From Haliotis cracherodii (Eukaryota): a stretch of 64,000 nt of DNA. Location: assembly GCF_022045235.1 (NCBI RefSeq), contig NW_027266264.1, positions 19,716,001 to 19,780,000 of the forward strand. Reading direction: 5' to 3'. Under the pieces are notes generated by a model. That model did not search any database and was not told where the DNA came from. It saw nothing but the letters and a program-made list of their open reading frames with translations. Position numbers and translations under genes: made by a program. Below, piece after piece: positions 34,501 through 38,892 of the stretch (position 1 is the first letter of the stretch; the number at the start of each line of letters is the position of its first letter).

Positions 34501-37500
34501 CATTAGTCGCCTCTACAACAAGCAGTCACCATTTATGGCAAGCACGGGTTGCAGAAAACCTCTCCTCCCCCGGACCTTCAAGGGTCAAAACACATGAGGA
34601 CGGAGAGGGCTTCATACATTGTAACATTTGTATCCATGTTGTACCAGTCTCCATTAACCACTGTGCTAACCTTGCCTCGACTAATGGAACAAAATTTTCT
34701 TTCATTATACTTACCCTGTTCAATGATCAACCCATATGAGAATGGGGAGATTCCCAACATGTTGAGGAGAGTTGACTCGGACTGTCCAACTTTATCTCCA
34801 GTCTTTATCAGATTCACAGCATTCTAGGAAAGATGATCAAGACCAAGGTGAATGGAGTACCAGCGTTAGAAATTGGCACTAGTCCTGTAGTCCTTACCAA
34901 ACTGCCCAATAGTAAAGGTATCCTAAATTGGCCCATTTTAAGGGTTTTGCTATATGTTATCATTATAACGACTAGTGGTAAAAGCTGTTAGTTTCTAACC
35001 CTGAGTACAATAGGCTCATCAAAAACATAACTTGGTCAGTAGAAAAGAGAAAATCCTGGATCATTGTCCAGTATTCAAGTTTTATCATGGTGTGTCAGGA
35101 GGAAAGCCCGAAGTGATGCAGGTCTCAGACATTTACCACTTCGGTGAAACCCACGAGCACGGGTATGGTGCTGACAGACCTAGAAACATAATCAGGGCAA
35201 ACCGGGATTCGAACCCACAATCATAGGTTTCTGGCGTGCCCAAGGGATGAAACTCTGCACATCCATAAGCGGCACCTTAGACGACTGGGCCACCCGTGCC
35301 CCCAGAATAAACATTAGTGAGGGAGAAGTGTTTTACACAATCTACAGCAACATTCCAGCAATATCACAGATGGGGACACTAGAAATGGGCTTCACATATT
35401 GATAGCATGTGGAGAGTTGAACCCAGGCCTTTGGCATGATGAGCAAATGTTTCTTAACCAGTAGGCTATCCTATCACCCCTAGTAAGAAAGTACCAAAAG
35501 ACTTTTTCAATGAGATACAAAGCGTTCATGTACCAGAATTTCAATGGTGCCTTTGGTGATTTTGGTAGGAATCTGAAGGGCCTGGAAGAAAGAGGTCTTC
35601 TCGGGTCCGAGGACGGTGTGCTGGGCAGGGACCGTCACATCCAGGGGGGCAATAGCTCCCACACGGGCAGGGGCCTTCACTTTATTCTCCATGATGACAG
35701 TTCGGATGTCAGTGAGATCTTCCTTGCTGAATACAAATCCCACATTGCCTCGGATGTGTGGCAGCAACCTGCAACATGAACGTCGGTCAGCACCATTCTC
35801 CCGCGGCATGCTACACTGGCTTCATATACATTCTAAAAACCTGTCATTACTGACTCCTCGCCATGATCACCCATGTTCTATCAGCATGAAGTTACAATTT
35901 GCTCAGACAGCCATAATGGCAAGATGTTGCTCTCTGTGTCACAAAAACGACAGTGGGTTCAGCCATTTCTGGCTCTATCGTTTGGCTATGTGACGCTCGC
36001 AACGCTTGCTGGATCATCATTGCAGTTCAGTGAACATGGCTTGGGTTAAAACATCTTGCTAGTCTTCACCTGATCACAACCTAATGTAAATGCATACACC
36101 AATACTGAGAATTCCTCCCCCTTCACATATTACTCATTTCGAATCTACTTCATTACCATACTTATGTCCAACACAATTTCATGACAAAGTTGGCGAGGGT
36201 TTCTGCAACAAAATGCTGCTTTTAAAAGTATTTCATTTAAGAGTAATGATTAAGCTTATATAATGTTTGAGGAAAGCAATGCAGATTGTAGATGTTGACC
36301 AATAGGAATATGATGCAGTCCATGCCTCAAGCCTTTAAGTTCATTACCTCTTTCTGCACTAGTTTCAGTATGAAAATAGGCACAGTGAAAAGGGGTTTAA
36401 CGCAGATTACTGCACTTATATCATGACATGCATTCACGTGTGTGTGGCTGCTCCGGACAAATGTTGATTTTAAAGTGTTAGCTCACAGAGATACCATGCC
36501 ACAGTGTAACATGAATTCCCCACTCAGACAGTTTACTGACCAGTCCCTGTTTTATTGCCATAATGATGAGCTCCAGGCAGGGTAACAACAAGTACCATCT
36601 CTTAATGTCTTGATATGACACGCCCCTGGACCTCCAGCTCTCCATGCTGACGCTCTACCACTAGACCACAGAGGCAGTCCAGTGTTAATTTTAAAAATCC
36701 ATGCATTGGTATGGGTCTGACAGACTAATGATCATAGTGTGTGGTTACAGTTTACGCCGCTTTTAGCAATATTCCAGCAACATCACGACGGGGAACACCA
36801 GAAATGGGCTTCACACACTGTACCCATGTCGTGAATCAAACCCTGATCTCCAGCGTGACGAGAACGCTTTAAGCACTAGGATACCCGACCACCCCCTAAT
36901 GATCAGAACAAATAAGAGACAAACTTACTTCTCTAGGGCCGGGTTGTTCTCCAGATGGCCCCTAATGGCCTTTCTCATCATGGTGTTCTTCCCCATCAGT
37001 ACAACTGAAACCAGATTGTGGCAGGGCAATGAATGATTTGGGAGACAAGCAAACATTGAATAGTGTATGTTAAATTCAGCTTGCAGCGTTAGAAATTGGC
37101 ACTAGTCCTATAGTCCTTGTCAATCAGTCCAATAATTAAGGTATCATAAGGACTAGTAGAAATTAGCCAATGTTAAGAGTTTTTTCTATATGTTATCATT
37201 ATAAGGACTAGTGGACTATAACTGTTAGTTTCTACCCCTGGCTTGGCCAAATATACGAGAAACATAGCTCTACATTGAAAACACTAATGTTTATCTCCAT
37301 TCCACCATGACAAAAATAAATCGGAATTACAGAAATATTGACACTAGCTTACATCTACTTTATTCTTTCAAGACACAGGGAACAAGTCTTTCATTTCATA
37401 CTTAGTCATGTTGATCCAGAAAACATGTTACATTTGGTACTTTGAATCATCAGCTACGTTAGGCATGACCTAATAAAGACTTGTGCAATGTCAAAAGTGA

Positions 37501-38892
37501 CTTGTTGATGCTGGTATTGTGCAAATGTTTTTTGCACTTTAACTGTGGAATCAACTTGTAACAGATGTTTTGTTTGTTTTTGTTTTTCAGCACCGAACTC
37601 AGCAATATTCCAGGCAAACAACAGCGGCCTGTTATATCTAAGGAGGGTCCAGACAAACCAGTGATTGATTTGAGAACCCCCCCCCCCCCCATGCTCTCAG
37701 GGTACAAAGATATGCAATCAAGTCACACAAATAATTGATGACTGACAACCTGAAACCCCAACAAAGTTCCAAACGATACACCAACAATTAGGCACCGTGA
37801 TACAATACATACAGACCTATATCATGATACGATAGAAAATCCATATTACTTAAAAGAATTACCATAAATGCTTAAATGCGAGTATGCAGCCTACAAATAA
37901 GCTGTTTTGCATCATTTTTTGCTTCCCCATTACTTTGATTTGAACAGTTAATAAAGTATACTGCCATTCTTTCAAGCATCTGAAATACATGACTTTCAGT
38001 TTATAGTCTTTGTTCTGTAGAATCGAGATATTTATTGCATTGTGGCCTTCTGTATTATATATAATTGTAATTATCTTTGTGACAAGCAGCCTTGTGTTAT
38101 GAACAATATGCACTTGTGTTATGAACAATATGCACAAGCAGTTATAATAAGATTGGGTGGTCAATATGGACCAATCAAAATAGGTGAAGTAATTGCTCTA
38201 TATTGGCCATGTAGGATACCTTGTGGCATAAAGTGTTGACTCAATCATACTCCCCATTCATGCTCAGACAGCCAAAATGGCAAGATATTGCTCTCCGTGT
38301 CACAAAAACGACAGTGGGTTCAGCCATTTCTGGCTCTATCGTTTGGCTATGTGACGCTTGCAACGCTTGCTGGATCATCATTGCATGAGGGTATTGGTCT
38401 TGATCTGTTTGCCTTCAAACTTTTAAAGTGGATGGCCAACTCCAATTTGTGTTTCCTGATTTTTAATTCATGCGATTTCTTACCTCCTCTCCCTCGTAGG
38501 GCCTGTCGGATCTTCTGCATCTGCTTGGAGCCGACATTGTCCGCACCCACAATGAAACATTTGGGAAATTCATCCAGAAGTTGCTGAAGAACAACACATT
38601 TAATTGATAAAATTTGTCCATAGTCACCATAGATGGCCCTTATTGATTATACTGTTGTGCATAGAATGTAAATGCTTAAATTTACTCACTAGGTAGATCT
38701 ACTGGTTTTCTTTGAAAAAAATAAAATGCATTATCATTATTTCTGATATACAAAAAAAAAAATCCATATATCATGCACTAGTCTTGTTAATGTAAGTGGT
38801 ATTTGTGTCGTTCAGCAATGTCAGATGTGGCTACTTACGACAATCTTAAGGAAGTAGTTCGACTTCCAGGTAGATCTGTCTTCCTTGACCAT
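31578..38892 (-). CDS. RPLP0: 60S acidic ribosomal protein P0 (uL10), 311 aa, 8 coding exons
   Basis: Exons 38892-38839, 38583-38484, 37004-36929, 35768-35534, 34823-34715, 34274-34198, 32327-32187 and 31721-31578. All introns are GT-AG with consistent phases (936 nt). [17 protein letters not shown]...[12 protein letters not shown]...[20 protein letters not shown]...[16 protein letters not shown]. Confidence 0.97.
32562..32798 (-). mobile_element. Family A retroposon copy (RPLP0 intron)
   Basis: Matches consensus. Confidence 0.85.
32800..32943 (+). mobile_element. Family C short tRNA-derived SINE
   Basis: ggtagcctagtggttaaagtg...gacccgggttggattccc...ctcactca. Confidence 0.8.
33148..33221 (-). 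ncRNA. SNORD59: Box C/D snoRNA, SNORD59/snR54-like, copy 1
   Basis: 8-bp terminal stem ggtgtttg/caaacacc, C box ATGATGT, guide ACTTTCGTTCT then D' CTGA (complementary to 18S rRNA AGAACGAAAGU), C' TGAGGA, D CTGA. Same sense as the host gene. Confidence 0.85.
33888..33960 (-). ncRNA. SNORD59: Box C/D snoRNA, SNORD59/snR54-like, copy 2
   Basis: Same architecture as copy 1, with C box ATGATGC and an identical guide and D/D' boxes. Confidence 0.82.
34363..34586 (-). mobile_element. Family A retroposon copy (diverged)
   Basis: Matches consensus with internal deletions. Confidence 0.8.
34861..35003. mobile_element. MITE with CAG...CTG termini and 5-bp TSD
   Basis: cagcgttagaaa ... tttctaaccctg, TSD agtac/agtac. 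Confidence 0.75.
35094..35303 (-). mobile_element. Family B tRNA-derived SINE
   Basis: Ends ...ttagacgactgggccacccgtgcccc, the reverse complement of the head. Confidence 0.85.
35316..35480 (-). mobile_element. Family C SINE (diverged)
   Basis: agcaacattccagcaatatcac...gaaatgggcttcaca...gagttgaacccagg...taggcta. Confidence 0.7.
35900..36024 (-). ncRNA. SNORD22: Box C/D snoRNA, U22/SNORD22-like, copy 1
   Basis: 125 nt, C box ATGATGA, D box CTGA preceded by a short hairpin and CTGT. Central AGAGCCA-GAAA-TGGC-TGAACCCACTG resembles the vertebrate U22 core. Intronic and in the host sense. Confidence 0.8.
36470..36677 (-). mobile_element. Degenerate Nin/Deu-like tRNA SINE
   Basis: Reverse complement contains ggtacttgttgttaccctgcctggagctcatcatta, as at 49110-49150. 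Confidence 0.55.
36740..36896 (-). mobile_element. Family C SINE
   Basis: tttacgccgcttttagcaatattccagcaa...ccagaaatgggcttcacaca... Confidence 0.8.
37084..37240. mobile_element. MITE with CAG...CTG termini and 5-bp TSD
   Basis: Homologous to 34861-35003, TSD gcttg/gcttg. Confidence 0.75.
38258..38388 (-). ncRNA. SNORD22: Box C/D snoRNA, U22/SNORD22-like, copy 2
   Basis: About 4 substitutions from copy 1 while the flanks are unrelated. 6-bp terminal stem tcatgc/gcatga. Confidence 0.8.

Follow-up and report, generated by a model that had tools for sequence, protein, structure and literature searches.

The window analysed here is a stretch of 64,000 nucleotides (nt) of genomic DNA from the abalone Haliotis cracherodii (NCBI RefSeq assembly GCF_022045235.1, contig NW_027266264.1, positions 19,716,001 to 19,780,000 of the forward strand). 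The gene for the ribosomal protein RPLP0 (uL10) lies on its minus strand, and two adjacent introns of this gene each contain a sequence with the features of a box C/D RNA that resembles the vertebrate small nucleolar RNA (snoRNA) U22 (SNORD22). On the evidence of sequence, both are box C/D RNA genes encoded within introns of abalone RPLP0, and accumulation of their RNAs is predicted. In window positions, the features are as follows (bp, base pairs).

31578..38892, minus strand: RPLP0 (uL10) host gene, eight coding exons, from start codon to stop codon
35900..36024, minus strand: U22-like box C/D RNA of 125 nt (copy 1), inside the RPLP0 intron at ~35769-36928
36014..36020, minus strand: box C of copy 1
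35903..35906, minus strand: box D of copy 1, with UGU and a small hairpin on its 5' side
35961..35974, minus strand: conserved 5-bp GNRA-tetraloop hairpin of copy 1, pair probabilities 0.93-1.0
35954..35960, minus strand: 7-nt bulge GAACCCA of copy 1, identical in four of four invertebrate RNAs and predicted unpaired
38261..38385, minus strand: U22-like box C/D RNA of 125 nt (copy 2), inside the adjacent upstream RPLP0 intron at ~37005-38483
38375..38381, minus strand: box C of copy 2
38264..38267, minus strand: box D of copy 2
38322..38335, minus strand: conserved GNRA hairpin of copy 2
38315..38321, minus strand: 7-nt bulge of copy 2

Each copy has a box C (AUGAUGA), a box D (CUGA) and a short terminal stem. 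A gap-free alignment of the two copies contains 4 differences over 125 nt (121/125 identical, 96.8%), and the ungapped identities of their 100-nt flanks, 24/100 and 17/100, are those of unrelated sequence. A sequence-only reading of this DNA had described two C/D RNAs of about 125 nt in adjacent introns, roughly 97% identical and with unrelated flanks, and these measurements bear that description out. Its interval for copy 1 holds without change, while its interval for copy 2, 38258-38388, includes the terminal stem and is longer than the 125-nt RNA itself. A DNA search of the abalone genome (1.18 Gb) and a search with the core pattern both returned no copy besides these two; this excludes a high-copy repeat, one of the outcomes which that reading had named as speaking against it. 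An assembly artefact is also ruled out, since both sets of flanks are present in contigs under another organism label. Among close relatives, 3 changes were counted in the 125 nt of the RNA, none of them in the core described below, compared to 9 in 168 nt of flank, a difference that is not significant (Fisher p 0.25).

Annotation of the host gene draws on eight tblastn segments from 38892 to 31581, which together cover residues 1-311 of Haliotis uL10, on the three expected Pfam domains (PF00466, PF17777 and PF00428) and on the closest named proteins, which are from Haliotis (95-99%). Both introns are spliced out with GT-AG ends in contigs of two sequencing runs from related organisms, runs whose status as RNA is a guess. 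The 3' end of copy 1 lies ~131 nt upstream of its 3' splice site; copy 2 starts ~98 nt past the donor and ends 1,256 nt ahead of the acceptor. Low-depth contigs from relatives' runs, again of guessed RNA status, span copy 1 together with its flanks, and mature RNA ends are not visible in contigs of this kind.

Metagenome contigs were scanned with a pattern that combined the core with the 3' end and left out the host gene and box C. This yielded two loci, L005 and L006, both of which are RPLP0 introns of other animals (2/2), and both of which have a correctly spaced box C though the pattern did not require it, giving the same layout of boxes and terminal stem as in the abalone copies. The host is RPLP0 in all three lineages carrying the RNA (abalone, L005 and L006). 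The L005 RNA resides in the last RPLP0 intron and the L006 RNA after the exon ending GTIEIL, which indicates a shift of the RNA from intron to intron within a single host gene. The nearest named proteins of L005 are molluscan (76-87%), and L006 has no close named match. No further homologue was found in the prokaryote genome contigs searched, and three matches of a looser pattern in viral contigs were rejected as chance, having no match to SNORD22 or to the RNA-family model built here. L006 also contains, at 1445-1527 on its minus strand, another C/D-like RNA of ~80 nt in an RPLP0 intron, which scores 18.2 bits on the model built here and looks like an ordinary guide.

SNORD22 (RF00099) is the best-matching Rfam family for four of four RNAs, each of ~125 nt, with alignments spanning model positions 1-126. 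In scans of 146 nt, copy 1 scored 16.1 bits (E 0.34) and copy 2 scored 17.8 bits (E 0.12); L005 scored 14.1 bits and L006 36.2 bits (E 1.2e-6, or 3.3e-5 in another scan). The four RNAs thus span 14-36 bits, compared to a curated gathering score of 50 bits for U22, and the covariance-model check that the sequence-only reading had proposed gave no significant score for the two window copies. Taken alone, these sub-threshold scores of the window copies prove nothing. The SNORD22 model pairs the terminal stem only, so that a conserved internal helix earns no credit. The L006 score stands ~20 bits above those of the three other RNAs with the same pattern bases (14-18 bits), and the extra score must therefore come from positions outside the pattern. 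No match at the gathering score was found when the whole window was compared with Rfam, and SNORD22 was not among the matches of a 14-kb scan at E<=5. A whole-genome search with the nematode family ceN40 (RF01630, gathering score 35 bits) returned neither copy and only unrelated weak places. The identification as U22 with a ribosomal-protein host, as the sequence-only reading had it, finds support in the L006 score, in the top rank of SNORD22 for all four RNAs and in the structure that they have in common, and the abalone RNAs are very probably homologues of vertebrate U22. The four RNAs are best described as likely homologues, not as members of Rfam SNORD22, and they form a real, conserved family in invertebrate RPLP0 introns. 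The case for homology rests on context and structure and not on the rarity of the core pattern.

In an alignment of the two abalone copies, L005 and L006, a 24-base core is invariant except for one loop base. The core folds into a 5-bp GNRA hairpin followed by the 7-nt bulge, set on a 9-bp helix, with a tetraloop that is GAAA in three RNAs and GCAA in L006. In all four RNAs the bulge is predicted to be unpaired (0.88-1.0) and the hairpin paired (0.88-1.0). The helix covaries, with both sides changed in 5 of the 9 pairs and 98.2% of 56 cells paired; none of 500 shuffles reaches this score, and alignments slid out of register are 23-45% paired. A small hairpin of variable sequence directly precedes UGU and box D. 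The sequence-only reading had drawn one long stem together with this small hairpin. The stems that it listed are those of the minimum-energy fold of copy 1 (z -2.2, 4/200 shuffles as good; for the copy 2 fold, z -1.8 and 10/200), whereas its outermost pair, gcaag/cttgc, overlaps the small 3' hairpin, so that the two are mutually exclusive. The four-sequence consensus keeps the 3' hairpin, and single-sequence folding favours the alternative with the outermost pair by 4.5 and 3.0 kcal/mol. The further suggestion that the shared residues mark a functional core stands as far as a conserved structural module is concerned, through covariation and alignment, and its function is one that we infer. Judged by sequence, the hairpin and bulge would likely be the working part of the RNA.

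U22 was reported by Tycowski, Shu and Steitz in 1994, as cited in the portions of PMC7277114 and PMC2943600 that deal with it. A role in 18S ribosomal RNA (rRNA) processing is stated for it, with the mechanism given as unknown in the corresponding part of the 2020 review (PMC7277114), and a passage of PMC4344512 has it running partly with large pre-ribosomes. According to the relevant text of PMC2943600, U22 has been identified in vertebrates only and its C. elegans homologue is unclear; an extract of PMC6315972 likewise speaks of U22 in vertebrates, and the SNORD22 entry of PMC4914119, a deuterostome-only data set, gives its conservation as 'Vertebrates' and names no selected target. Like the abalone RNAs, U22 is intronic and ~125 nt long, with box C/D ends and no accepted methylation target. 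The human U22 sequence in the supplement of PMC4914119, compared by eye, can adopt a 10-bp helix, a hairpin capped by GUAA and the same 7-nt bulge; the closing pair of its hairpin is U-A where the invertebrate RNAs have A-U, and a hairpin of different sequence precedes UGU and box D. Box C of U22 is AUGAAGA, whereas that of the abalone RNAs is the canonical AUGAUGA, the hairpin of the abalone RNAs is one base longer on its 3' side, and the helix sequences are unrelated. The U22 host is the non-coding SNHG1/UHG, an arrangement typical of vertebrates and not defining for the RNA, compared to two copies in the protein-coding RPLP0 of abalone.

A second relative is suggested by the ceN40 family. 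Its consensus (123 positions), again compared by eye, has a GAAA-capped hairpin of 5 bp together with a helix on its flank and a 7-nt bulge whose last bases are ACCCA, all at the same distance from box C as in the invertebrate RNAs, with differences in two hairpin pairs and one bulge base. The ceN40 model was not listed in scans of the window copies or of L005 and matched L006 at 14.3 bits, below its curated score. Rfam assigns no clan to either ceN40 or SNORD22. CeN40 is an expressed C/D RNA for which Northern blots exist, and in the tables of PMC2442092 that include it, its level responds to the loss of Nop58, Nop56 and Snu13 (Z-scores of 2.15, 1.44 and 1.69, respectively), with a Z-score of 0.14 after depletion of Nop1 and Z-scores near zero after depletion of H/ACA proteins. 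We consider it probable that CeN40 is the nematode U22.

The absence of an obvious rRNA methylation guide, as claimed in the sequence-only reading, was confirmed by searches against abalone ribosomal DNA (rDNA), U3 and U5, in which no antisense element of at least 10 nt before box D or before the internal CUGA is common to the four RNAs. As a positive control, the same script recovers the 11-nt perfect 18S guide of two neighbouring SNORD59-like RNAs. The longest match is 13 nt to 28S, a length reached by 27% of 200 shuffles, and the strand involved is locked in the hairpin. For the bare bulge, the best 18S pairing is at 383-388 (-11.4 kcal/mol, 6 bp), followed by 1137 (-10.5 kcal/mol); with three opened helix bases added to the bulge, a pairing at 18S 1296-1303 reaches -13.9 kcal/mol. 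The 382-388 site is a 7-nt loop closed by a predicted hairpin stem of 6 bp, which we take to be helix 12, and the 1137 site is partly paired. At both the 383-388 and the 1137 site, the base change in the ceN40 bulge would turn an A-U into a G-U pair. Complementarity to U3, another check that had been suggested, came to nothing, as pairing with U3 or U5 extends over at most 5-6 nt, while the suggested comparison with pre-rRNA yielded, as the best partner of the bulge, the 18S hairpin loop over 6 bp, a length at the level of chance. Complements of the bulge upstream of 18S and in 28S were rejected as targets, being indistinguishable from chance. A likeness is also apparent between the core and the next 18S hairpin after the 382-388 loop (18S ~371-430), through mimicry or chance, and between the complement of the bulge and the tRNA T arm.

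The explanation that we prefer, at a probability of roughly 0.65, is that these are U22-homologous C/D genes acting as non-methylating helpers of 18S processing; the non-methylating pre-18S role, proposed by homology, appears probable to the same degree. From established C/D biology, the RNA would be released from the spliced RPLP0 intron and its joined C/D ends would be protected by Snu13, Nop56/Nop58 and fibrillarin, so that the RNA would be made in step with a ribosomal protein. By homology with U22, it would act on the pre-18S particle and be needed for cleavage. The helix would serve as a scaffold only, free in sequence as long as pairing is kept, and would present the bulge and the tetraloop; the bulge may then pair loop to loop with pre-18S rRNA, and a tertiary contact of the GNRA loop or a contact with a protein would brace this pairing. 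The preferred docking site would be the 7-nt hairpin loop at 18S 382-388, a target that the modelled pairing suggests and that we name tentatively. More doubtful still is the wider proposal that U22 is bilaterian-wide, with CeN40 as its nematode form and with its entire conserved function residing in the GNRA hairpin and bulge, which would kiss a 7-nt loop of the 18S 5' domain.

Other C/D RNAs offer partial parallels for such a role. U3, U14 and U8 carry long rRNA-complementary elements, unlike the abalone-type RNA, which has no conserved long element of this sort. They are likewise non-canonical, and their role in pre-rRNA cleavage is thought to be chaperoning by base pairing, in the section of PMC6315972 that treats them. 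SNORD13/U13, snR45 and snR4 are also atypical C/D RNAs acting on 18S, and SNORD13, at first regarded as specific to vertebrates, was later also found in invertebrates. Acetylation guides pair with both sides of their target via long elements (a single one in Drosophila), compared to a conserved exposed strand of 6-8 nt here.

Several observations weigh against the preferred explanation. Four of four RNAs fall below the SNORD22 gathering score, three of them with E values of 0.12-1.2, and a whole-genome SNORD22 search, in which 43 of ~120,579 candidates were scored, missed both copies and returned only unrelated weak places. L005 and L006 were chosen by a pattern common to U22, which inflates their SNORD22 scores, and the 16-base core pattern alone occurs at chance level in the genome (13 matches for the reversed control vs 2). 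The covariation test covers three independent lineages only, the human and nematode RNAs being excluded from it and compared by eye, and the link to ceN40 is a 14.3-bit local match to L006 51-136 (E 0.29) in which the last ~40 model positions are unseen. A 6-bp pairing is weak, as this 18S contains 36% of all possible 6-mers, and the two other sites described above score similarly, the stronger of them if the helix opens. The mature RNA was not seen, the available material being contigs. Finally, the available portion of a 2026 preprint (bioRxiv 10.64898/2026.04.02.716167) assigns human SNORD22 to splicing and, in one data set, finds no significant SNORD22 binding by core C/D proteins.

That the RNAs form an invertebrate orphan C/D family unrelated to U22, with the common core due to chance or convergence, would be in keeping with the sub-threshold Rfam scores, with the chance-level core pattern, with a host gene that differs from that of U22 and with the ascertainment of L005 and L006 through a pattern. 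However, the E value of L006, with ~20 bits more than the pattern bases give, is not expected of an orphan family, nor is the agreement with human U22, read by eye, in length, in core position, in the arrangement of hairpin and bulge, where the closing pair is flipped, and in the hairpin-UGU-box D end, and we regard this origin as unlikely. A role as a 2'-O-methylation guide, with the internal CUGA as box D' and a 28S target, is very unlikely. Although this CUGA is found at position 63-65 in four of four RNAs, and in three of them the bases ahead of it can be matched to 28S for 12-13 nt, 2 G-U pairs included (position 5447, with numbering from the start of 18S), the match is of the chance length noted above, its strand is held in the hairpin with pair probabilities of 0.88-1.0, L006 no longer matches the abalone 28S at this site, human U22 as given in the consulted supplement has no CUGA there, and no box C' partner is conserved.

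The pairing of the bulge and three helix bases with 18S 1296-1303 would fit an snR4-like RNA that guides the acetylation of a cytidine in helix 34 of 18S, as it comprises 8 bp, ends 14 nt before the CCG at 1316-1318 and lies at the sole UGGGU in this 18S. Acetylation of human helix 34 is independent of SNORD13, and we know of no guide for it. Yet snR4, snR45 and SNORD13 pair with both sides of the target C, and no second element is present among the top matches here; C. elegans has no 18S acetylation and still keeps CeN40; and processing does not depend on such guides, but is reported to require U22 in the part of PMC7277114 that discusses it. An acetylation guide is a decidedly unlikely reading. 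Regulation of splicing, argued for in the portion of the 2026 preprint at hand from PRPF8/EFTUD2 binding and effects on exon inclusion, depends in that model on an AG-rich stretch, but the purine-rich 3' strand of SNORD22 is poorly kept in abalone and L005 while the hairpin and bulge are kept, and no match longer than 5 nt connects the core with abalone U5. The claim that SNORD22 acts mainly in splicing is weakened by this, as the purine-rich stretch is not what evolution kept, and we hold such a function for the abalone RNAs to be highly improbable.

The remaining RPLP0 introns and the rest of the window contain further elements. At 33891-33957 and 33151-33218 on the minus strand are the two SNORD59-like C/D RNAs used as the control, which score 39.7 and 34.8 bits (cut-off 45), lie in one RPLP0 intron, each match abalone 18S perfectly over 11 nt at 1007, and were duplicated together with some flank. 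High-copy, partly tRNA-like repeats occupy 36430-36900, 37060-37300 and 32620-32940 in RPLP0 introns, with very high contig depth and weak tRNA matches. Upstream of the RPLP0 start codon, ~39806-39870 (minus strand) has a pyrimidine-rich start and then a GT donor, and is likely to be a first exon that is non-coding and bears a 5' TOP motif. A long near-perfect hairpin at 30627-30751, which matches plant microRNA models below cut-off, is probably an inverted-repeat element, and 22000-26000 is strongly A-rich (AT skew 0.42-0.60), probably a simple repeat array. Elsewhere in the abalone genome, at least 49 U3 snoRNA genes form a tandem array with a period of ~1.3 kb (C78:40384219-40515778), and C10 contains U5 arrays with a period of ~630 bases.

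No report of an invertebrate U22 or of a link between CeN40 and U22 was found in the literature covered, which includes PMC7038934, PMC8993069, PMC1474057, PMC9226516 and PMC12645875, the last with no mention at all, and excludes Marz et al. 2011 on atypical animal snoRNAs. That study is said to be a metazoan-wide search of snoRNAs with exceptional structures, and there is about one chance in three that it already reports an invertebrate U22. As the Rfam model misses the copies described here, annotation pipelines would overlook U22 outside vertebrates.

Few snoRNAs besides U22 are reported to be required for the cleavage of 18S rRNA, and the vertebrate copies of U22 are too alike to reveal which of their parts are essential. 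What the distant copies have kept comes down to the GNRA hairpin and the 7-nt bulge on a scaffold helix, which names the residues to mutate and narrows an old mechanistic question to ~25 bases. If CeN40 is indeed the worm U22, its function would be open to genetics, and if U22 is bilaterian and its bulge kisses an 18S loop, this would provide both a mechanism and a genetic model for an RNA that has been an essential orphan for 30 years.

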